A DNA stretch of 64,000 nucleotides. Source: Escherichia phage vB_vPM_PD06. Position 1 is the stretch's first letter. Every line of letters starts with the position of its first letter. Both the position numbers and the translations under genes were made by a program. Shown piece by piece: positions 13,180 through 42,123 of the stretch. Location of the stretch: the sequence record NC_052653.1. One strand, 5' to 3'. A model generated the notes under the pieces. The model saw nothing but the letters and a program-made list of their open reading frames with translations. It was not told where the DNA came from and searched no databases.

Positions 13180-14913
13180 TTAGTCAACCTGGATGGTTCC
13201 CATAGTACGAAGAACCTCTACATCAACACGGTTGCGGATATCAGTGAATGTTTCATCACGACCTTCTACTTGTGGTGTAATAACCTTACCATTCTTGAAG
13301 ATAACTTGTAACTCATTGTCTTCATCCTGGATATCTTTAAAAGAAAGATTATCTACAAGAGAAAGATTACCATTGGTATCATTAACAACCTTAATAAAAC
13401 CTTTTGCAGAGCGTTTACCAGGATCAGTTTTAGGCTCCTTACTTACCAAAATTTCGTGTTCACCGATGATACTACCTGTTGCTTTAACAGCAAAACCAAA
13501 AGTATCTCGTGTATTGAACTGATAAGTATAACTACCAACACCAAATACAATATTGGAAGCTGCAAAACCTTTCTTCTTCAGTCGGCGTAAGATCTCGTGT
13601 TCTCGTTCAACAGTAATAGAATCACCATAAATCATACCGATATGCTGATCAAGAACCTTGTAGCCTTTTCGGTTGATAGTACCACCAAACACTTCCCAAA
13701 GGATTTGAATAGAACCTACTGCTTCACAATAAGGAATCTCATAAGTTTCATCAATACAGTCAGCAACACTGCAATCCTGAAGAACATTGTAATACTTATT
13801 AACATCAGCCAAATGAACTACTTCAGTGGCTGTCGCAATACCATTATTTAAGAGGTCTTGATAGTTATCAAAAGATTCAACATTGTATCCTGCAACAACT
13901 TTAACCGGATCTCCTGAATCTGGACGAATAACAAGACGACCATTTCGTGACATAATGGAATCTTTCAATTCTACCAGAATGCGAGTCAATACAGCCCAAT
14001 AGTCATAAGAGTCTGCTACATATGAACAAAAACCTTCTGGAACAATTTCTTCGATATAACGACGAAGAAACTCTTTTTCTGCTACATAACGAAGCCCATC
14101 TACATCATCTTTAAGATGTGGGAAATGTTTCTTCAGATCTTCAACAATAGATCCAATGTTAGTCGTTGCTACTGAATGTTCTGTTGCCGGAATCGAACCT
14201 GCAACAAACTGATCATAATCAATACCATAATAGTCATGCACAGTTTCAATAGCCAGAATATTATCTGTTCCTGTGAACGATGCCAAGTGAGCGATACCAC
14301 TCTTATAACCATCTTCGATATTACTTAAACCACGTAGGCTAAAATCATGACACTGGAAGTTAACGTGATCAATATTATCACACGTTGCCATCGCATATGC
14401 CATAGCGATACGCTTATACTGAAAAGCTGCTGTGGCATTAGTCATTGTCTTCCAAGTTTCATCTGACAACAGTGTTTCCACATAGTTAGTTAACCAAAAG
14501 AATTTTTCTAAAGTATTATGCACAGTAAACACAGGAACACCAATAGGACACAAAACACCTTCTGGCAGAGATCGAACTTCCAGCGGAAGATAACCTAAAT
14601 CGTGCAATTCTCCCCAACATTCCGCAGAAGGAGCAGAAGCACCTAACGCATTTTTAGACATACGATAAAATTTATTTACTGCTGCACTACGAGACATTTT
14701 AAAGAAGCTATCCCACATAGTTACAAGAGCATCAGTGACTGCTCGACGAATACCTAAAACAATCACACCACGTGCTTCACGATCTGCATAGTGTGCAAAG
14801 TTTTTATCATTACGAGGAGTTAAATTAGAGAAAATAAGTTTTGTATTTTGGTTGTACATCTGCTTGTGACCAGGTTTGTACCAATCAGTAGCAAAAGGTG
14901 CAAAAATATTCAT
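13180..14913 (-). CDS. nadV: Nicotinamide phosphoribosyltransferase (NAMPT)
   Basis: 577 aa; N-terminal MNIFAPFATDWYKPGHKQMY and overall length typical of NAMPT family. Confidence 0.85.
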   Translation of the reverse strand: MNIFAPFATDWYKPGHKQMYNQNTKLIFSNLTPRNDKNFAHYADREARGVIVLGIRRAVTDALVTMWDSFFKMSRSAAVNKFYRMSKNALGASAPSAECWGELHDLGYLPLEVRSLPEGVLCPIGVPVFTVHNTLEKFFWLTNYVETLLSDETWKTMTNATAAFQYKRIAMAYAMATCDNIDHVNFQCHDFSLRGLSNIEDGYKSGIAHLASFTGTDNILAIETVHDYYGIDYDQFVAGSIPATEHSVATTNIGSIVEDLKKHFPHLKDDVDGLRYVAEKEFLRRYIEEIVPEGFCSYVADSYDYWAVLTRILVELKDSIMSRNGRLVIRPDSGDPVKVVAGYNVESFDNYQDLLNNGIATATEVVHLADVNKYYNVLQDCSVADCIDETYEIPYCEAVGSIQILWEVFGGTINRKGYKVLDQHIGMIYGDSITVEREHEILRRLKKKGFAASNIVFGVGSYTYQFNTRDTFGFAVKATGSIIGEHEILVSKEPKTDPGKRSAKGFIKVVNDTNGNLSLVDNLSFKDIQDEDNELQVIFKNGKVITPQVEGRDETFTDIRNRVDVEVLRTMGTIQVD

Positions 14914-14984: not shown

Positions 14985-15878
14985 TTAAAAATTCCACACG
15001 TATGGAGATACAATTTGTTGTTGCAAATCTGACTGATTCTTAACAAGAACACCAGAATCTTCTTGGATGTTATCTTCCCACACATTAAGAGAATGAATGC
15101 AGTCAAAGTGCTCACTTAACTCTTTAAGACCTTTAGAAAAGATACCGTGTGTAACATATAGCTCAATCTTACCTGCGTTACGAGCACGTAGCACTTTAGC
15201 CAATTCGATAAAAGTTCTACCACCATCACAGATATCATCTACGATCATCAGGTTACGCTTATTGAAATCCTGTACAGAAATGTCTGTACGAACAATAGCA
15301 CCTGTTGCGGTATCTCTAACCTTCTCTGCACAGAACACATCTAAAGACATTTTCTTAGATAATTTAAATATTTTCTTAAGAGCACCACCATCAGGGCTAA
15401 CAAGAGCAAAATTCTCCATACGTAACTTCCACTTTAAAGTTTCGTAAGCAATCTCTTCTTGAGGCATTACACAGAGTCTGTCAAACACTGCTGGAGTAAC
15501 ATCACTATGCGGATCAGCAACGATAACACGTGAGAAATTTAATGAATTAATTATAGAAGCAAATGCTTTAACTCCGAATGCTTCCCCAGGCTCACACACT
15601 CTGTCTTGTCGTGCATACGGCACATACAACATGAGTAAATCAACACAATATGGTTTATGATATAGCATATTGTCCAATGCATTCTTAGTCATAACCAAAG
15701 TCATCAAGTCTTTAGCAGATCTTACTTCTAAAGTGAGTAAGATTCTGTCTGTAGCATGATTGAAACCTGATAGATTCGTATCTAATTGAACATGTTGTTC
15801 TCCACCAGAGAATGTAAACACTTTAACGTCTACATCAGTAACATAACAGTCAACACCATGCAGAATACTAACTTTCAT
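14985..15878 (-). CDS. prs: Ribose-phosphate pyrophosphokinase (PRPP synthetase)-like
   Basis: YARQDR motif, SPDGG, and PRPP-binding loop MIVDDICDGGRT. Confidence 0.8.
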   Translation of the reverse strand: MKVSILHGVDCYVTDVDVKVFTFSGGEQHVQLDTNLSGFNHATDRILLTLEVRSAKDLMTLVMTKNALDNMLYHKPYCVDLLMLYVPYARQDRVCEPGEAFGVKAFASIINSLNFSRVIVADPHSDVTPAVFDRLCVMPQEEIAYETLKWKLRMENFALVSPDGGALKKIFKLSKKMSLDVFCAEKVRDTATGAIVRTDISVQDFNKRNLMIVDDICDGGRTFIELAKVLRARNAGKIELYVTHGIFSKGLKELSEHFDCIHSLNVWEDNIQEDSGVLVKNQSDLQQQIVSPYVWNF

Positions 15879-18421: not shown

Positions 18422-18781
18422 ATGTGCGCTACTAATCAACATGATATTTGTTACCAACCTCTTACTTGGATTGGTGAGGATCACTATGCTCAACGTGTTA
18501 TAGTCTGCGCTGCGAATAAGTATATTCTCAACAATGGCGAAGAGTTAATTATTCCTTGTGTTAGGCATGCAAATCCTGTACTATCTGCACAACTTAATGT
18601 TTTAAAAGATGCAGGATTGATCGATAAACTGTTTTGCTTACCTGATAATCAAGGGTTTATTGATCAATATTATAATTGGTGGAGTCGCAAAGATGCTTAT
18701 ATCATTGCAGATAACGCCAAACAAATTAACTATGAAAGAAATGGTCACGACAGTGAACTATTCAGCGAGGGATTATACTAA
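18422..18781 (+). CDS. Hypothetical protein
   Basis: ATG at 18422 (MCATNQHD...), about 119 aa. Confidence 0.45.
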   Translation: MCATNQHDICYQPLTWIGEDHYAQRVIVCAANKYILNNGEELIIPCVRHANPVLSAQLNVLKDAGLIDKLFCLPDNQGFIDQYYNWWSRKDAYIIADNAKQINYERNGHDSELFSEGLY

Positions 18782-19332
18782 TGTTTATTACAAGTGATTT
18801 GCATTTTATGCACAAACGTATTCGAGAGTTTGCTCCTGAATATCGCCCGTGGGAAGATATGGAGCATATGACAGAAGCACTGATTGAAGCATGGAATAAA
18901 TGTGCTACGAGTCCTGGTGTCAAGATGTGGCATTTGGGCGACTTCTGTTTCGGGACTGAAGAAGATACCCGTAAAATTGCTTCACGTCTTCAAGGTGATA
19001 TCACTTACTGTGTTGGGAACCATGATTACAGCAAACACCGAGAAGTGCTTGCAGAATATGGCGAGGTGGTGTATTATGACGAAGTGAAATATCAGAAACT
19101 GTTCTTCGTCTTAAGTCATTACCCTATGGCTGCTTGGAATAAACAAGGGCATGGATCAATCATGCTACACGGGCACTCTCACGGATCATTCCCTGATCAT
19201 TTGTATGGGAAAATGTTGGATGTTGGTTGGGATGCACACGGAAAAATCTTGCATTTTGACGAAATCATCTCTATTATGGATAAGCGTGATATTGTTGTTG
19301 TAGACCATCATAAGATAATCAAAGGAGATTAA
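18781..19332 (+). CDS. Calcineurin-like metallophosphoesterase
   Basis: Motifs SDLHFMH, GDFCFG, GNHD, then His-rich HGHSHG. Confidence 0.7.
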   Translation: MFITSDLHFMHKRIREFAPEYRPWEDMEHMTEALIEAWNKCATSPGVKMWHLGDFCFGTEEDTRKIASRLQGDITYCVGNHDYSKHREVLAEYGEVVYYDEVKYQKLFFVLSHYPMAAWNKQGHGSIMLHGHSHGSFPDHLYGKMLDVGWDAHGKILHFDEIISIMDKRDIVVVDHHKIIKGD

Positions 19333-19333
19333 G

Positions 19334-20266
19334 GTGGCTAAGTTCAATTGTGATGACCTGATTGCAAAAGGTTTAGTGCATAAAAAAGAAGTTAAATCTG
19401 GAGAGTATGCTGGTCTTGCTGTACTTAAATACAAAAACAATGTATTCTGGGATAACTTGTGGAACGTTGACAAACGACTCCTAGATTGTCGTGGGTTGGT
19501 TGTTGACTCAGAAGACAATGTTGTTATCTGGCCTTTTACTAAAATCTTTAATCGTTTTGAGAATGGTACAGATCTTCCAGCAGACCAGCTTGTAGATGCT
19601 GTCCGTAAAGTAAACGGTTTTATGGCATCTGTAGGTGTGTACAAAGGGCAACTTATTGTATCAACAACAGGGAGCCTAGAGTCAGATTTTGCAACTCTTG
19701 CCAAGAACCATATTGTTTCCGAGTGTGATGACATAGAATATTTCATTAAGTGGACAGAAAGTGCAAAAGCAACTTTCCTTTTTGAAATCTGTGATCCTTC
19801 TGATCCACATATTGTCGAAGAAGAACCAGGCGCATACTTAATTGGAGCAAGAATTCAAAATCTTGATGGGACAAGTTTCATGCTACCCGAAGGTGTGCTT
19901 GATGGGATTGCATCTATTACAAAATTTAAACGTCCTGAAGTTTATCCGATGATTAAATTTTCAGATGTTGTTGAAATGTCTAAACATTGTAAGCACGAAG
20001 GGTTTGTTGTTCGGGAAACAAACTATCCGTTTAACTTGCTGTTAAAGATTAAGTCACCATATTATCTTGCTAAGAAATTCCTTATGCGTGGTGGCAATAA
20101 GAAGTGGGATATGATTTGGGACAACCCAAAAAATGCTAAACAAATTGTTGACGAAGAATATTATACTTTGCTAGAATGGCTTCGAAACAACTTTACTAAG
20201 ACTCAATGGGCTGCTTTAGATCCACAAGAGCGACGTAAAGAAATAGAAAACTTCTTTGGAGGCTAA
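19334..20266 (+). CDS. Polynucleotide ligase, RNA-ligase-like
   Basis: Nucleotidyltransferase motifs: I VRKVNGF (KxNG), IV HEGFVVRE, V LLKIKSPYY; GTG start with GGAG upstream. Confidence 0.6.
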   Translation: MAKFNCDDLIAKGLVHKKEVKSGEYAGLAVLKYKNNVFWDNLWNVDKRLLDCRGLVVDSEDNVVIWPFTKIFNRFENGTDLPADQLVDAVRKVNGFMASVGVYKGQLIVSTTGSLESDFATLAKNHIVSECDDIEYFIKWTESAKATFLFEICDPSDPHIVEEEPGAYLIGARIQNLDGTSFMLPEGVLDGIASITKFKRPEVYPMIKFSDVVEMSKHCKHEGFVVRETNYPFNLLLKIKSPYYLAKKFLMRGGNKKWDMIWDNPKNAKQIVDEEYYTLLEWLRNNFTKTQWAALDPQERRKEIENFFGG

Positions 20267-20671
20267 ATGAAACAACTTATCATTTTACGTGGTGTTTCAG
20301 GTGCAGGTAAATCTACAGTAGCAGAAATTATTTCTGAAGGTTATTGGCCTATCTGTGAGGCAGATCAATATCATTACACAGAAAGTGGTGTTTACGATTG
20401 GAAGCCAGAGAATGTAGGTAAAGCACACGCATGGTGTCAGAGTATTGTTCGTGATGCTATGGTATCTAATATTAAAAAGATTATTGTCTCTAACACTTCA
20501 ACCACAGAGAAAGAACTTAAACCTTATTTAACTCTTGCTGAAGAGTTTGGTTATCAAGTTATCTCCTTAGTTGTTGAAAATAGGCACGGTAACGACTCAA
20601 TTCATGAGGTTCCACAACATACTCGTGATCAGCAAGAGAAACGTCTTCGCAGTTCACTTAAGCTACAATAA
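20267..20671 (+). CDS. P-loop kinase, polynucleotide-kinase-like
   Basis: Walker A GVSGAGKST near N-terminus; 134 aa; start abuts ligase stop. Confidence 0.6.
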   Translation: MKQLIILRGVSGAGKSTVAEIISEGYWPICEADQYHYTESGVYDWKPENVGKAHAWCQSIVRDAMVSNIKKIIVSNTSTTEKELKPYLTLAEEFGYQVISLVVENRHGNDSIHEVPQHTRDQQEKRLRSSLKLQ

Positions 20672-35740: not shown

Positions 35741-35938
35741 ATGATGCTAGATCAACTGATCAATGCTCCTCGCGTAACAGTAAGTCCAAAAACATTTGCA
35801 TCACTTTTAGAAGATGCTAGAGAGGTTTATAACTTTACTGAAGAAGAGCTTCCTGTTCCTGTTGAAAAAGGTTCCAGATGGTTGTTTTATGAAGGTATTA
35901 TTTTTACTGAAGGGAATAATTGGAAGGAGACTAAATGA
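35741..35938 (+). CDS. Hypothetical protein
   Basis: ATG at 35741 with GGAGGA upstream; 65 aa. Confidence 0.4.
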   Translation: MMLDQLINAPRVTVSPKTFASLLEDAREVYNFTEEELPVPVEKGSRWLFYEGIIFTEGNNWKETK

Positions 35939-36924
35939 AATACTTAGTAACAGGTGGTTTAGGCTTTATTGGAAGTGCGGTAGTTCGTTTCCTAGCTAAA
36001 AATACTAAGAATGATATTTACGTTATAGATAAATGGGGTTACGCTTCAGACCCTAGAAATTTATCAGAAACACCTAATGTAAAGTTTTGTCGTGTTGACT
36101 TGACAAATGCTCAGTTAACTGCTAAGATTGTGGCAGATGTTAACCCAGATTATATAATGCATCTTGCAGCAGAAAGTCACGTAGATAATTCAATAGCATC
36201 ACCGAGTGTTTTTATAAATTCAAATATTGTTGGAACATTTAATCTTCTAGAAGCTGTTCGTTTAATGGGAGATAAATCAAATCTTAAAATGTTTCATCAT
36301 ATTTCAACAGATGAAGTGTATGGTGATATGGAAGAAGGGGATTATCCGTTTACAGAACAGAATCCTTATAAACCAAGTAGTCCATATGCTGCATCTAAAG
36401 CTGCAAGCGATCATTTGGTAAGAGCGTGGCATCGTACTTATGGTATTCCGACAGTTATAACAAATTGTTCAAATAATTTTGGAGCGTATCATCATCCAGA
36501 AAAACTAATACCTAAAACGATAACAAATATCTTGATGCATAAACCAATCCCTGTTTATGGCAATGGTCTTCAAGTAAGAGACTGGCTATACGTTGACGAT
36601 CACGCAGAAGCATTACACCTAGTAGTAACTAAAGGCAAATCTGGAGAAACATATAATATTGGGAGCAGAAACCCTAGAACTAATATTGATGTAATCTATA
36701 TGATTTGTGATTATATGGATGCGGTATATCCATCTGAAACAGATGCTTGTAGCCTCATTGAGATGGTTACAGATAGGCCTGGGCATGATCTAAGATATGA
36801 AGTGAATCCTTATAAGATTGAAAAGGAATTAGGGTGGAAAGCTAAAGGCACATTTGAAGAAAAACTTTATTCAACCATTGATTGGTATGTAGATAACAAA
36901 GAGTGGTGGGAAAATAAAGTTTAA
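35935..36924 (+). CDS. rmlB: dTDP-glucose 4,6-dehydratase
   Basis: N-terminal TGGLGFIGS Rossmann motif, catalytic YAASK, STDEVYG. Confidence 0.85.
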
Positions 36925-36932
36925 GGAGGAGT

Positions 36933-37802
36933 ATGAAAGGTATTATCTTAGCAGGTGGTAGTGGAACAAGACTTTACCCAGTTACTAAAGGGGTTAGTAA
37001 ACAACTATTACCAATTTATGATAAGCCTATGATTTATTATCCACTCTCTGTCCTAATGCTTTCTGGAATTAGGGAAATACTAATAATTACAACACCAGAA
37101 GATCAAATTAATTTTGTAAATCTTCTAGGTGATGGTTCTTCTTTTGGTATTTCCCTACAGTATGCAATACAGGATAGTCCAAGAGGTTTAGCAGAAGCGT
37201 TTATTATTGGTGAGAACTTTATTGGTGAAGATTCTGTAGCACTTGTGCTAGGTGATAATTTATTCTTTGGTCAGAGTTTTGGTAGCATTTTAGATTCTGC
37301 TAAAGAACATATTGAAAAGAATGGTGGAGCTAATATTTTTGGGTATCACGTAAATGATCCTGAAAGATTTGGTGTTGTTGAGTTTGATTCTGAAGGTACA
37401 GTGGTAAGTATTGAAGAAAAACCAAAAGCACCAAAAAGCAACTATGCAATTACAGGCTTGTACTTTTACGATAATTCTGTTATACAGAAAGCTAAAAGCG
37501 TTAAGCCTTCTGCTAGAGGGGAGTTAGAGATTACAGATATAAATGAGATGTACTGGAAAGAAAAGGCTTTACGTGTCTGTAAGCTAGGAAGAGGTTTCAC
37601 TTGGCTGGATACAGGAACACATGAAAGTCTTATGGAAGCATCTCAATTTGTTCATGCAATAGAAAAGCAACAAGGTATGAAGGTTGCATGCCTAGAAGAG
37701 ATTGCTTTTAAAAATGAATGGATTACTTTAGATTCTGTAAAAAGTTCTGGAGAGGTTTTAAGTAAAACAGACTACGGCAAGTATTTACTTAAATTAAAAT
37801 AA
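36933..37802 (+). CDS. rmlA: Glucose-1-phosphate thymidylyltransferase
   Basis: N-terminal [16 protein letters not shown] and [18 protein letters not shown]. Confidence 0.9.
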
Positions 37803-37814
37803 GGGGGAGATTAA

Positions 37815-38369
37815 ATGATTCAAGCAACAAAAATCGAAGATTTGTTGATCATTCAACCTGACGTTTACGGGGATGAACGTGGTTTTTTCTTAGAAAGTTT
37901 TAATCAGGCTTTATATGATCAATACATAGGTAAACAAAACTTTGTCCAAGATAACCATTCACGTTCTATTCGAGGAGTTCTACGTGGGCTTCATTTTCAA
38001 AAGAAAAACCCACAAGGGAAGTTAGTACGTTGTGTTCGTGGTGAAGTTTATGATGTTGCTGTAGATATTAGGGTTGGTAGTCCAACATTTGGAGAATGGG
38101 TAGGTGTTCTTTTATCTGAAAAGAATAAAACACAATTTTGGATTCCTCCTGGTTTCGCTCATGGCTTTGTTGTGATTAGCGACATTGCTGATTTTGAATA
38201 TAAATGTACAGAATATTACGATCCGACTTCAGAGTGTAGTCTTGCGTGGAATGATCCAGATATCAATATAGATTGGGGTTTTGATTTAATCTTTAATGAT
38301 ATTAATTTTAAACCTATCTTGTCACAAAAAGATCAGGAAGCCAAAACACTAAAGGAGATCATATTTTGA
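37815..38369 (+). CDS. rmlC: dTDP-4-dehydrorhamnose 3,5-epimerase
   Basis: DERGFFLESF, RGLHFQ, WIPPGFAHGF cupin motifs; 184 aa. Confidence 0.85.
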   Translation: MIQATKIEDLLIIQPDVYGDERGFFLESFNQALYDQYIGKQNFVQDNHSRSIRGVLRGLHFQKKNPQGKLVRCVRGEVYDVAVDIRVGSPTFGEWVGVLLSEKNKTQFWIPPGFAHGFVVISDIADFEYKCTEYYDPTSECSLAWNDPDINIDWGFDLIFNDINFKPILSQKDQEAKTLKEIIF

Positions 38370-39196
38370 CAAAATTTTTAATCTTTGGTTCAAAAGGTCA
38401 ATTAGGACAATCTTTGGCAAAAGTTGCACCAGAAGATGTTATTTTGATTGAAGCAAGTGATATAGACATTACCAACTTTAAAGATGTTATGAATAGTCTT
38501 GTACAGCACGTGCCTGATGTTGTTGTGAATTGTGCGGCTTACACGGCAGTAGATAAAGCTGAAGAAGATGTTAACACCTGTATAAATGTTAATGCATACG
38601 GTGCAACAAACATTGCCAAAGCATGTAATGATTTACTGATACAGTTTGTACATATTTCAACAGACTATGTTTTTGATGGACATGTTGCTGGCACAGAAGA
38701 GAGTAAAACAAACCCCTTGAACACCTACGGTTACAGTAAACAATTAGGTGAAACTTTAGTACAAGCAGTTTGTCCTACAGCACTTATTATCAGAACAGCT
38801 TCTGTTTATAGTGAATTTGGACATAACTTTTTGAAAACTATGTTGGAACGCTACAACGGTGGTCAAAAAGAATTTAATGTAGTATGTGATCATTTATCAT
38901 GTCCTACTTATGCACCTGATCTTGCAGAAACAATTTTTAAACTTGTAAAAGATGGTGTAAATAGTAAAATTGTACACTATGCAGGTGCAGATTATATTTC
39001 TTGGTATGATTTTGCACGTAAGATATTTCTTGTTATAGATTTGTCTGTTACAGTTAATCCTGTATCTGCTTCAACCTATAATTCTAAAGCAGTCAGACCA
39101 GCAACATCTTATTTAAAAACAGATCCTACTTTAAATCCGCGAAGTGTTGATAGCGGTATTGTAAGAACTTTAACTATACTTTTAAACAAGGAGTGA
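38366..39196 (+). CDS. rmlD: dTDP-4-dehydrorhamnose reductase
   Basis: N-terminal LIFGSKGQLGQ, NCAAYTAVDKAE, STDYVFDG; TTG start overlapping rmlC stop. Confidence 0.8.
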   Translation: MTKFLIFGSKGQLGQSLAKVAPEDVILIEASDIDITNFKDVMNSLVQHVPDVVVNCAAYTAVDKAEEDVNTCINVNAYGATNIAKACNDLLIQFVHISTDYVFDGHVAGTEESKTNPLNTYGYSKQLGETLVQAVCPTALIIRTASVYSEFGHNFLKTMLERYNGGQKEFNVVCDHLSCPTYAPDLAETIFKLVKDGVNSKIVHYAGADYISWYDFARKIFLVIDLSVTVNPVSASTYNSKAVRPATSYLKTDPTLNPRSVDSGIVRTLTILLNKE

Positions 39197-39198
39197 AA

Positions 39199-39459
39199 AT
39201 GAATTTTATTATCTACGGTAAACCAAATTGTCCTTTCTGCACTAACGCTAAGACTCTACTGGAACAGCGTGAACAGGATTTTAAATATCTTACCTTAGAT
39301 GAAGACTATTCTTTAGATCAGATTCAGAATCTGGTTTTAGAGAAAACAGGTGTTCTGCCACGTACCTTTCCTCAAATTTTTGTGGAAGATGGTGAACATC
39401 TAACCCACGTAGGAGGTTTTTCTGAACTACGTGAATTCATGGCTCAGATTGCGGAGTAA
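39199..39459 (+). CDS. Glutaredoxin-like protein (NrdH/Grx-type)
   Basis: CPFC active site in MNFIIYGKPNCPFCTNAK; AAGGAG 5 nt upstream. Confidence 0.75.
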   Translation: MNFIIYGKPNCPFCTNAKTLLEQREQDFKYLTLDEDYSLDQIQNLVLEKTGVLPRTFPQIFVEDGEHLTHVGGFSELREFMAQIAE

Positions 39460-40122: not shown

Positions 40123-40146
40123 AAAGGGGCGAAAGCCCCTTTTATA
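40123..40146 (+). terminator. Rho-independent terminator
   Basis: AAAGGGGC-GAAA-GCCCCTTT followed by TA-rich U tract. Confidence 0.7.
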
Positions 40147-40158
40147 AGGAGTGCAAAC

Positions 40159-40911
40159 ATGGGAAATAAAACCGCAAAGGCTCGTCGTCAATCAGCAGCC
40201 AATGATGACAAACGTGCCAGTCGTTATGCGGCTAAAGCAGTAGGAAATGATGATTACCGTCTTGATGAATTTACCCCTGTTGGGAATCAAGAAGCTATTG
40301 TAAGAAGCATGGTTTGGAATGATTTAACCATTGTTAATGCCCCAGCAGGAACAGGAAAAACGACAACAGCACTATGGAAAGCATTGCAAATGCTTAAAGC
40401 TGGTGACTTCAGAAAGTTGATTTTCCTTAAAAACCCGACAGAAGTAGGTGATGACCAAATTGGTTTCTTATCTGGAGATAAGACTGATAAACTAGCAGCA
40501 CACTACGAGTCAACTAAAAGAATTTTCCAACAGTTTATGACTGCAAATAAATTGGAAAACGATATTGCAAGTGGCAAAATTGAACTTAATATTCCGAACT
40601 ATGCACTAGGTGCTACGTGGGATAACAGCATTATTCTTATTGATGAAGTTCAACTTATGTCACCAAACACAGTAAAACTTCTCCTTGAGCGAGCAGGTCT
40701 TAATACACGTATTGTCATTATGGGCGATGTTAATCAAACATATGCAATTAAACGAAGAGCTAACGGGTTAGGTGATTTGTTAGATCGTGTTGTTCCTATT
40801 AACGAAGAAGGAGAAAGGGAAGCTATTGTAGATTTTATTGGTTATGTTGAAATGACAACTGCTGATAACCAACGTTCCCGTTTGTCTCAGTTCATCACGG
40901 AAGTATATTAA
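40159..40911 (+). CDS. phoH: PhoH-like ATPase
   Basis: Walker A NAPAGTGKTTTAL; 250 aa. Confidence 0.85.
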   Translation: MGNKTAKARRQSAANDDKRASRYAAKAVGNDDYRLDEFTPVGNQEAIVRSMVWNDLTIVNAPAGTGKTTTALWKALQMLKAGDFRKLIFLKNPTEVGDDQIGFLSGDKTDKLAAHYESTKRIFQQFMTANKLENDIASGKIELNIPNYALGATWDNSIILIDEVQLMSPNTVKLLLERAGLNTRIVIMGDVNQTYAIKRRANGLGDLLDRVVPINEEGEREAIVDFIGYVEMTTADNQRSRLSQFITEVY

Positions 40912-40947: not shown

Positions 40948-41442
40948 ATGACGCTAATTGAGATTGATCGCAATGGTATTGATGAATGCTATCAAGCTGG
41001 CTTAGTTAAGCCGAATGAGTTTAGACAGATTTATATTGACAAGATTGAAAAAGAAATATCTCTTCGTTTAGAGAACATGACAACTTTGCAAAAAGTTCAG
41101 ATGTTTTTTAGTTGGTTAAAAGGAGAGGATTGGCTAACTAAATATTACCAGGAATTATCTGATAGTCAAGAAGGCTTGTTTGAGTGTATAATAAATGTAG
41201 CTGGGTCTAATTCAGAATTACTCCTGATTGATGAAGAAGATTCTAAACTTCTTTTTCTTAGCAGTATCTTTCACAAGAAATCTATGTTAGTAAGAAATTG
41301 CAGTGATTTACTAAATCATCCACTAACAAGAACCAATAAAATTCTTGTGGATAAAGAAACACTAAGAGCTATTGATTACCTACGTAAGTATGTAAGCGGT
41401 GGTAAAGCAGTCCTTAAAACACTACAGGAGGAAGTACAATGA
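40948..41442 (+). CDS. Hypothetical protein, translationally coupled to HslV-like gene
   Basis: 164-aa ORF; stop overlaps downstream start (ATGA). Confidence 0.5.
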   Translation: MTLIEIDRNGIDECYQAGLVKPNEFRQIYIDKIEKEISLRLENMTTLQKVQMFFSWLKGEDWLTKYYQELSDSQEGLFECIINVAGSNSELLLIDEEDSKLLFLSSIFHKKSMLVRNCSDLLNHPLTRTNKILVDKETLRAIDYLRKYVSGGKAVLKTLQEEVQ

Positions 41443-42092
41443 CAACAATTATTGCAACACATAACAAAATTCTATCTGACGGTAAAGTAACAGTAGGTAA
41501 TCGAGTAGACACTTTAAATTTCAAGAAAGTGCGTAAAATTGGGGATTACCTTGTTGGTGGTGCAGGACGTCTGTCTTCTATCCTGACTTTCTTTTCTTGG
41601 TTTGAACAAAACTTACAGTGCCAGGCAGCACAAGAGACAATCCCAGGTTTGGTGATCCAATCAGACCCTGATAAAGAAGATGAAGAGTTTGTGGCATTGG
41701 TTGTTCACCCAGACGGTAAAATTTATATGCACGAGGGTAATAATCCAACGCGAGCATATCCTTTAACTGAAGATTACTATGCTGTTGGTAGTGGGGCAGA
41801 TTTTGCTTTAGCAGCTTTAGACGCTGGGGCAACCCCAGAAGAAGCGATGGAAGTTGCAAAACTACGAGATGCTTTTTCAGGCGGTGAAACTTTTGTTGAA
41901 GAGATCGAAGAACAACTGGAGCTAACAGCGGAAGATATTCTGAACTTCAGCAAGGAGCAACTAATTAGTATGCTGTTGACTGGTGATCCTGATAGTGATG
42001 AAGCTGAAAGTATTTTAGCAGAAATGAAAGAATCACAAGAAAAAGTATTGACAGTCTCTGAAAAACTTGATAAAGTATCCTCTGATAATTAA
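41439..42092 (+). CDS. HslV / proteasome beta-subunit-like Ntn peptidase
   Basis: N-terminus MTTIIATHN with Thr at position 2; GGAGRLS; GSGADFALAALDAG matches HslV GSG motif; acidic C-terminal extension. Confidence 0.65.
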   Translation: MTTIIATHNKILSDGKVTVGNRVDTLNFKKVRKIGDYLVGGAGRLSSILTFFSWFEQNLQCQAAQETIPGLVIQSDPDKEDEEFVALVVHPDGKIYMHEGNNPTRAYPLTEDYYAVGSGADFALAALDAGATPEEAMEVAKLRDAFSGGETFVEEIEEQLELTAEDILNFSKEQLISMLLTGDPDSDEAESILAEMKESQEKVLTVSEKLDKVSSDN

Positions 42093-42102
42093 TCTAACAT
42101 AA

Positions 42103-42123
42103 ACCCCCTCACGGGGGTTATTA
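42103..42123 (+). terminator. Rho-independent terminator (weak U-tract)
   Basis: AACCCCC-TCAC-GGGGGTT hairpin. Confidence 0.5.

Follow-up and report, generated by a model that had tools for sequence, protein, structure and literature searches.

Phages encode proteasome homologues that have been catalogued (Fuchs, Alva & Lupas 2021, PMC8665760) but never characterized. In this catalogue, the PPH are proteins of ~140 residues that occur in Caudovirales and contain neither a propeptide nor helix H2. The PPH-related RPC have a C-terminal extension and were reported from Proteobacteria only, not from phages. The quaternary structures of these new homologues are unknown according to the same source. 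The beta-proteobacterial proteasome homologue BPH is a bacterial protein that retains H2 and assembles into heptameric double rings. BPH has no known dedicated AAA+ partner, and its long acidic pore loop accompanies the absence of an unfoldase (PMC8665760). Here we examine a 217-amino acid member of this superfamily from Escherichia phage vB_vPM_PD06 (NC_052653.1). The window, by which we mean the whole stretch of 64,000 nucleotides analyzed, comes from a phi92-like E. coli myovirus (Stephanstirmvirinae, Justusliebigvirus) and shares 99.5% identity with vB_vPM_PD114 and 98.4% with phi92. The peptidase gene lies downstream of genes predicted to encode a 164-amino acid protein and a PhoH-like P-loop ATPase. 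The role of PhoH in phages is itself a long-standing question. In divergent relatives, the same PhoH and a member of the same family as the 164-amino acid protein precede a peptidase with the ClpP fold, and the long forms of the two kinds of peptidase share a tail motif. Because of this, we consider it probable (roughly 0.6) that the three genes form a PhoH-linked chambered-peptidase module for regulated intracellular proteolysis during infection.

Fold and catalytic residues of the phage peptidase

A first-pass annotation made from the sequence alone had described two open reading frames (ORFs) on the plus strand, and both were found: one of 164 amino acids at 40948..41442 and one of 217 amino acids at 41439..42092 that starts with MTTIIATHN. 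Their counterparts in phi92 are Phi92_gp059 and Phi92_gp058, respectively. Searches of a collection of 5.8 billion proteins returned 82 homologues of the longer protein, down to 41% identity, and 34 homologues of the shorter one were found in a protein search. The existence of these homologues, together with the invariance of the peptidase catalytic residues, indicates that both ORFs are real genes that did not arise by chance. The longer gene already carries the labels 'HslV family peptidase', 'putative 20S proteasome', and 'putative proteasome component' in GenBank and RefSeq. Since it is annotated and its phage homologues were catalogued by Fuchs et al. (2021), it is a known but uncharacterized entity; nothing that connects phi92 with the proteasome was found in the literature searched.

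The catalytic core of the peptidase comprises residues 1-155 (41439..41903, plus strand). The protein matches the PHROG 1040 profile 'peptidase HslV family' over residues 1-212 (E = 1.5e-62, 212.7 bits), Pfam PF00227 (Proteasome) over residues 11-63 only (24.4 bits against a cut-off of 22.4), and solved HslV chains in the PDB at E = 2e-7 to 6e-6. The AlphaFold2 model has a mean predicted local distance difference test score (pLDDT) of 82.8, with the core mostly above 85 (85-98), and shows the alpha-beta-beta-alpha sandwich of N-terminal nucleophile (Ntn) enzymes. A Foldseek search of the PDB with this model gave 924 matches at E <= 1e-3, and all of the top matches were HslV, BPH, or 20S beta subunits with a probability of 1.0. 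This Ntn/proteasome fold is found in 47 viral structure clusters in BFVD. Alignment of 33 sequences, including relatives down to 41% identity, showed that T2, T3, D14, K30, G41, G43, and G117-S118-G119 are invariant; the last three open the segment GSGADFALAALDAG (residues 117-130), which contains GSGAD. Residues Asp14, Lys30, and Ser118 align with Asp17, Lys33, and Ser124 of HslV.

The peptidase begins with M-T-T and has no propeptide. HslV from E. coli also starts with MTT, and its Thr1 is exposed by the host methionine aminopeptidase. From the known specificity of this aminopeptidase, Thr1 of the phage protein would likewise be exposed through removal of the initiator methionine. The earlier assignment to the Ntn/proteasome-beta superfamily, which had been made from the Thr after the initiator Met and a segment resembling the GSG motif of HslV, is thus supported by that Thr, by the Asp/Lys/Gly/Ser set, and by the predicted fold. 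The comparison of the predicted structure with HslV and 20S beta subunits that had been suggested at that stage revealed an Ntn fold. We infer that the ORF at 41439-42092 encodes a catalytically competent N-terminal-threonine peptidase of a compact, H2-less phage type, as judged from the sequence and the model. Such a protein would be expected to assemble into rings and to cleave protein substrates.

The proteasome-like superfamily also includes the archaeal connectase, a ligase, which raises the alternative that the phage protein is a non-proteolytic Ntn enzyme, either a connectase-like transpeptidase/ligase or an amidohydrolase. We regard this as highly improbable. The full proteasome-type Thr/Asp/Lys/Gly/Ser set is conserved, the peptidase model contains no connectase-type S3/S4 insertion, and the presence of a ClpP-fold serine peptidase in the same slot of related loci, described below, argues for peptide-bond hydrolysis.

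The peptidase resembles bacterial HslV (ClpQ) in its MTTI N-terminus and in the residues that align with Asp17, Lys33, and Ser124-Gly, and HslV is the best match among solved proteins in both sequence and fold. However, the two are only 21-27% identical, the N-terminal hairpin of the phage protein is three residues shorter, and helix H2 is absent from its predicted structure. In the model, a single long helix H1 (residues 45-67) is followed by a 17-residue acidic loop (68-84) with six D/E residues at the position of H2 in HslV, and then by H3 and H4. Three additional helices (164-213) are predicted after the core. These lie in an acidic, helical tail of 62 residues (156-217; 41904..42092 including the stop codon, plus strand) that contains 17 D+E and 5 K+R and has an isoelectric point of 4.05. 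As had been observed earlier, HslV has no such tail. With the NCBIfam equivalog models for HslV, the protein reached 34.5 bits for TIGR03692 (cut-off 137) and 32.2 bits for NF003964 (cut-off 157.75), so that the cut-offs were missed by approximately 100 bits. Given the failure of these models, the absence of H2 from the predicted structure, and the added tail, the sequence and the model together indicate that the peptidase is not an orthodox HslV.

The peptidase fits the description of PPH: it is likewise phage-borne and compact, lacks a propeptide, has the Thr1/Asp/Lys/Gly set, and is H2-less in the model, although its core of ~155 amino acids is somewhat longer than the ~140 of PPH. It has a C-terminal extension in common with RPC, but comes from a phage whereas RPC come from Proteobacteria. 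Similarity to BPH is seen in the high rank of BPH among the fold matches and in the acidic loop, which lies at the pore-loop position, but identity is 18-19%. A PhoH or partner context, replacement by ClpP, and a shared tail do not feature in PMC8665760.

The 164-amino acid partner and the PhoH-like ATPase

The gene upstream of the peptidase (40948..41442, plus strand) is predicted to encode an all-alpha protein that we call the partner. It matches phrog_14834 over its full length (E = 2.3e-103) and has no match in Pfam or NCBIfam. Its AlphaFold2 model is all-alpha (pLDDT 94.1; predicted template modeling score 0.85) and no significant fold match was found in the PDB (best E = 0.22). Two motifs are conserved, GLVKPNEF close to the N-terminus and VDKETLRAIxYL close to the C-terminus. 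When 1.84 billion representatives were searched exhaustively with a profile, only 13 clusters of this family at 50% identity were recovered, and all members are stand-alone proteins of about 155-182 amino acids.

In every examined locus with downstream sequence available, a gene for a chambered peptidase lies no more than two genes after the partner. This adjacency holds from 99% to ~30% partner identity, with overlaps of 1 or 4 nt or short gaps, and is seen in phi92-like and phAPEC8-like phages and in Klebsiella phages FBKp34 and KP13-16, whose peptidase has 304 amino acids. The two genes are also adjacent, with a 1-nt overlap, in three metagenomic loci (L018, L019, and L060), and in a further locus (L061) two small genes separate them.

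In the window, the ATG of the peptidase gene (41439-41441) overlaps the TGA of the partner gene (41440-41442), as had been noted. A strong Shine-Dalgarno sequence for the peptidase gene, AGGAGGA, can be read at 41426..41432 on the plus strand, inside the 3' end of the partner ORF and with a 6-nt spacer to the ATG at 41439. Overlaps of exactly 1 or 4 nt occur in 16 of the 102 same-strand neighbor pairs in the window, and 21 more pairs overlap otherwise. Because start/stop overlaps are so common in this genome, the ATGA overlap alone is weak evidence for a two-gene unit, and the pairing of partner and peptidase rests instead on the adjacency conserved to ~30% partner identity. The two-gene unit proposed in the first-pass annotation therefore holds in that the upstream ORF is a conserved companion, but the unit has three genes, with the PhoH-like ATPase preceding the partner.

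This first gene (40159..40911, plus strand) is predicted to encode a protein of 250 amino acids that matches Pfam PF02562 (123.1 bits against a cut-off of 27), phrog_170, and PDB 3b85 (E = 1.6e-14). It contains a Walker A motif, APAGTGKT, and a Walker B motif, IDEVQ, of which GTGKT and DE(V/A)Q are conserved. Its scores did not reach the equivalog cut-offs for either E. coli PhoH or PhoH2, so that we consider it a member of the family and not an orthologue. The gene neighbors of the phage peptidase are thus a PhoH-like ATPase and a novel 164-amino acid protein, and the hslU neighbor of HslV is absent. The window ORFs scanned and the annotation of phage PaulScherrer over +/-20 kb contained neither HslU nor another AAA+ unfoldase. 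The earlier statement that no AAA+ unfoldase is nearby thus stands within this scope, but it had overlooked the P-loop ATPase two genes upstream.

The PhoH gene is upstream of partner and peptidase in all of the phi92-like, phAPEC8-like, and Klebsiella relatives, and it is retained in loci where the peptidase has the ClpP fold. In the Salmonella phage SSE121 (Vequintavirinae) the order is endolysin, PhoH, further genes, a 163-amino acid ORF, a ClpP-like gene, and a methyltransferase; in the ICP1-like phage JSF2 it is lysozyme, PhoH, two ORFs, and a ClpP-like gene; and in Vibrio phage 1.170.O a 466-amino acid 'PIN domain-like' protein that matches the PhoH hidden Markov model (HMM) is followed by a 59-amino acid ORF and a ClpP-like gene. 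Among 80 ClpP-like loci sampled from IMG/VR, the ClpP-like gene was preceded by a PhoH gene on the same strand, at a distance of up to 2.8 kb, in 14 of 23 clusters formed at 70% identity and 11 of the 14 formed at 50% identity; sampling began from PhoH-linked seeds, so that these frequencies are biased upward. At least eight loci have a 1- or 4-nt overlap of the PhoH stop codon with the start codon of the ClpP gene. The order of PhoH followed by peptidase survives to ~30% ClpP identity in several phage subfamilies, with variable inserts. Reciprocally, a chambered peptidase was found within ~2.5 kb at 10 of 25 evaluable PhoH loci. This was the case at all seven evaluable loci whose PhoH is at least 43% identical to that of the window and at three of the 18 with a more distant PhoH.

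Two distant proteasome homologues lie near a PhoH gene without the 164-amino acid partner. At one locus (L048, 4318-5533) the 3' end of PhoH overlaps the start of a gene for a 159-amino acid proteasome homologue, which is followed by a glutaredoxin gene. At the other (L020, 6001-8017) the homologue is 193 amino acids long and PhoH is 0.7 kb downstream, after two small ORFs that apparently encode membrane or coiled-coil proteins. In the window itself, residues 23-133 of the large terminase subunit (5776-7860, minus strand) match phrog_32482, which is labeled 'PhoH-like' (E = 6e-15); the match probably reflects a general resemblance among P-loop proteins or a mislabeled PHROG.

ClpP-fold peptidases in the same slot and the shared tail motif

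Among the partner homologues whose context could be used, the two that diverge most (P0125 and P0126; phrog_14834 E ~1e-13, family HMM ~1e-26) come from two divergent metagenomic phages. In both, the lysozyme/PhoH context is the same, and the gene immediately after the partner belongs to the ClpP family (4486-5124 in L057 and 4528-5091 in L059). These genes match PF00574 with 43.8 and 33.9 bits against a cut-off of 20.2, and phrog_1827 at E = 1e-50 to 1e-53, and they keep Ser and His in the expected motifs. As read from these sequences, one chambered peptidase has been displaced by another beside the same partner in a non-orthologous displacement. This suggests that selection acts on proteolysis and that the link between partner and peptidase does not depend on the fold of the latter.

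Stand-alone phage ClpP-like proteins annotated as 'ATP-dependent protease' (PHROG 1827, PF00574) occur in SSE121, JSF2, and many metagenomic phages, and they occupy the same slot downstream of lysozyme and PhoH, sometimes behind a member of the partner family. Their long forms share the post-core tail motif of the HslV-like peptidases and a similar C-terminal end. However, they have a Ser-His(-Asp) ClpP fold in place of an Ntn threonine peptidase, so the likeness is an analogy by displacement and the catalytic domains are not homologous. The 163-amino acid protein of SSE121 (L066, 2894-3385), which is encoded immediately upstream of the ClpP-like gene, may be a remote homologue of the partner. 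Single-sequence alignment with hhalign gave a negligible result. Profile-profile alignment with the partner family was full-length and collinear, but had E = 0.008 and a probability of 4.8%. Two motifs coincide between the SSE121 protein and the partner (GVVEPEFF with GLVKPNEF, and VDDDTGFNIDWL with VDKETLRAIEYL). We consider this suggestive and make no claim of homology.

The ClpP-fold relatives bear on the proposal in the first-pass annotation that the peptidase recruits a host unfoldase. According to this explanation the phage protein is an HslV surrogate that docks on host HslU, or on ClpX or another AAA+ protein, to form a hybrid ATP-dependent protease. The E. coli host has HslU, HslV is the nearest solved relative in sequence and fold, and the scan described above found no phage AAA+ unfoldase. 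Against this stand the low identity to HslV, the equivalog cut-offs missed by a wide distance, and the replacement of H2 by an acidic loop in the model. Furthermore, a ClpP-fold occupant would need a different host unfoldase, while the phage PhoH and partner stay constant. Since the ClpP-fold relatives keep both, the conserved companion is phage-encoded and is not a fold-specific host unfoldase. Recruitment of host HslU is weakened by these relatives and we do not favor it; we consider it unlikely.

A motif directly after the core, LTAEDILNFSKEQLISMLLTG, lies at residues ~161-182 of the window's peptidase (nt 41919-41984) and is kept in 36 HslV-like tails; all HslV-like proteins of this clade carry such a motif. 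When an HMM built from these 36 tails was searched against 5371 ORFs from ClpP-like loci, the highest-ranking matches lay in the ClpP-like proteins of L068 (E = 3.1e-8) and of L067 and L069 (E = 0.0035), in each case immediately after the ClpP core; the next-best ORF had E = 0.057. With an HMM of the last 75 residues of the long HslV-like forms, the best match was the very C-terminal end of the JSF2-type ClpP-like protein (E = 0.0066; next 0.53). In the reciprocal search, an HMM of two ClpP-like tails was run against 4405 ORFs and the top ten hits were all HslV-like peptidases, at residues ~158-190 and with a best E of 8.5e-7. These sequence matches are most simply explained by an in situ replacement of the catalytic core during evolution, with retention of the tail. 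Retention of the tail across a change of core would point to a role that is independent of the fold, such as docking or targeting. The tail is not obligatory, because the short ClpP-like forms lack it. No Pfam domain matched the peptidase tails. Nucleic acid-binding motifs of the HeH, SAP, or Rho_N type were considered and the idea was dropped, as a Pfam search of ten tail segments at E <= 10 returned nothing of the kind. A connection between the presence of a tail and that of an intervening gene was also considered; no correlation was seen, since the partner also precedes the tail-less ClpP-like proteins of L057 and L059.

Many phage proteins with the ClpP fold are prohead proteases, and a tail common to both kinds of peptidase could be a signal for targeting to the capsid, leading us to examine the head module. 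Its genes are on the minus strand and encode a major capsid protein (982-1983), a decoration protein (2005-2397), a scaffold-like protein (2416-3531), a prohead protease of the Peptidase_S78_2/XkdF family (3534-4025; 163 amino acids; Pfam 44 bits against a cut-off of 24, with matches to head-maturation PHROGs), and the portal (4110-5678). The HslV-like peptidase could in principle be a morphogenetic protease, involved in prohead maturation or associated with the virion, with a tail that targets the procapsid; this would explain a tail common to two folds. Prohead proteases commonly carry C-terminal targeting tails (HK97). Moreover, head-maturation proteases (phrog_1684, phrog_94, and others) are homologues of ClpP-fold phage proteins, and the RefSeq annotation of phi92 lists no prohead protease. 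However, the S78 protease holds the canonical position between portal and scaffold, so that the HslV-like gene, ~36 kb away on the opposite strand, is not needed for head maturation. The ClpP-like versions also have the non-structural phrog_1827 as their best PHROG. A morphogenetic role is therefore very unlikely. The phi92 counterpart of the S78 gene, gp121, is labeled 'DNA methyltransferase' in RefSeq via phrog_1530 and is probably a mis-annotated prohead protease.

In the module that we propose, the order of genes would be PhoH-like ATPase, all-alpha partner, and peptidase, bracketed by hairpins. The slot for the peptidase would be defined by function and not by fold, so that the core is interchangeable between ClpP-like and HslV-like forms. 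The tail and the 164-amino acid protein may be lineage-specific docking or regulatory elements, and host or phage proteins would be the targets of regulated proteolysis. The three genes would be co-transcribed, and the peptidase may interact physically with the partner or with PhoH. A more specific possibility is that PhoH is a dedicated nucleotide-driven partner that powers or gates a chambered peptidase of either the ClpP or HslV fold, with the partner and the tail coupling the two. We put this forward as a long shot. If true, it would be a hitherto unrecognized non-AAA+ ATP-dependent protease of phages or else machinery for the remodeling and degradation of ribonucleoprotein complexes. The phage phoH genes are enigmatic although widely used as markers in viral ecology, and one subfamily of them or more would then have a defined function.

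The main competitor to the module is a stand-alone, ATPase-independent peptidase, as proposed for BPH and Anbu, with PhoH and the 164-amino acid protein being merely co-inherited or co-regulated early genes. The loop that replaces H2 is acidic and thus recalls the pore loop of BPH that accompanies the absence of an unfoldase (PMC8665760). The frequency of start/stop overlaps in this genome fits such an explanation, as does the lack of linkage in most distant proteasome homologues and PhoH genes. However, the partner was never seen without a chambered peptidase just downstream, even across the change of fold, and the order of PhoH followed by peptidase persists to ~30% ClpP identity in several subfamilies. 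We consider a stand-alone peptidase possible but doubtful.

Several observations weigh against the module. Fifteen of the 18 distant phage PhoH genes have no linked peptidase, and most of the distant PPH-type homologues (L021-L056 except L020 and L048) have no linked PhoH. The PhoH-ClpP frequencies are inflated by the choice of seeds, and related large myoviruses can retain gene order through common descent in the absence of functional coupling. Known PhoH biochemistry is RNA-directed and not proteolytic. The tail motif is short and acidic, the window's own peptidase tail reached only E = 0.29 in the reciprocal HMM search, and the short ClpP-like forms that adjoin the partner (L057 and L059) do not have the motif. 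Loss of H2, seen in the model, might alter or abolish ring assembly. No experimental work on any phage member was found in the literature searched. Lastly, a record of phage VEcB (P0043) contains an in-frame fusion of 267 amino acids in which PhoH residues 1-113 are joined to the peptidase from residue ~66 across an 'AA' microhomology. It corresponds to window positions ~40159-40497 joined to ~41634-42092 and thus loses the C-terminus of PhoH, the whole partner, and the catalytic N-terminus of the peptidase. The region is intact in another VEcB record (OZ035773), and P0043 represents either a deletion that arose naturally or an artifact of assembly. It suggests that the trio can be lost as a block and is dispensable at least in culture.

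In the literature searched, we found no report of a link between PhoH and a protease, nor of the constancy of the partner-peptidase pair or of the shared tail. A comparative review of jumbo phages regards phage ClpP as probably anti-host and PhoH as 'enigmatic'. The module predicts that the peptidase, the 164-amino acid protein, and PhoH act together, that the core is interchangeable between ClpP-like and HslV-like forms, and that the conserved tail docks. A confirmed swap of the two great families of chambered peptidases would be a natural experiment on what each needs from its partners, and the module could point to an additional way for phages to reshape the proteome of the host. Phi92-like phages, PaulScherrer (BASEL collection) among them, grow on E. 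coli K-12, which makes the locus tractable.

Proposed boundaries of the unit and neighboring genes

A GC-rich, terminator-like hairpin, AAAGGGGC-GAAA-GCCCCUUU followed by UUAU, lies between the lysozyme gene and PhoH (40123..40142, plus strand). It has a predicted energy of -14.9 kcal/mol (z = -3.4), 0 of 200 shuffled sequences folded as well, and it may mark the upstream boundary of the unit. Directly 3' of the peptidase stop codon there is a second GC hairpin, AACCCCC-UCAC-GGGGGUU (42102..42119, plus strand), which we propose as the downstream boundary. At -13.7 kcal/mol over 48 nt (z = -1.7) this hairpin is weak alone; its stem is kept with compensatory changes in the diverged relatives L003 (GCCTC/GAGGC) and phAPEC8 and L007 (GCCCC/GGGGC). 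A scan for promoter and terminator consensus sequences showed no enrichment over shuffled sequences (15 versus 12.9 and 3 versus 2.7).

The unit sits among lysozyme, nucleotide-metabolism, and methyltransferase genes and not in the structural module. Four unannotated GenBank records, MG065639, MG065645, MG065656, and MG065689 ('Campylobacter phage' A150, A145, C3, and A110a, respectively), are 98.3% identical to this coliphage region. These records are attributed to Campylobacter jejuni hosts, and contamination or mislabeling of the host seems likely.

Upstream of the unit at 35935-39196 on the plus strand are the four genes of a complete dTDP-rhamnose pathway (homologues of RmlB, RmlA, RmlC, and RmlD), followed by a glutaredoxin gene at 39193-39459, according to the PaulScherrer annotation. 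Elsewhere in the window, a gene for a NAPRTase-family protein of 577 amino acids (13180-14913, minus strand) adjoins one for a PRPP-synthetase-like phosphoribosyltransferase of 297 amino acids (14985-15878, minus strand), a pair that we take to resemble the NAD+ reconstitution (anti-defense) pathways of phages. At 18781-20671 on the plus strand, a metallophosphoesterase-like ORF, a T4 Rnl1-type RNA ligase of 310 amino acids, and a P-loop kinase-like ORF of 134 amino acids (AAA_33) follow one another in a row that looks like an RNA-repair cassette.

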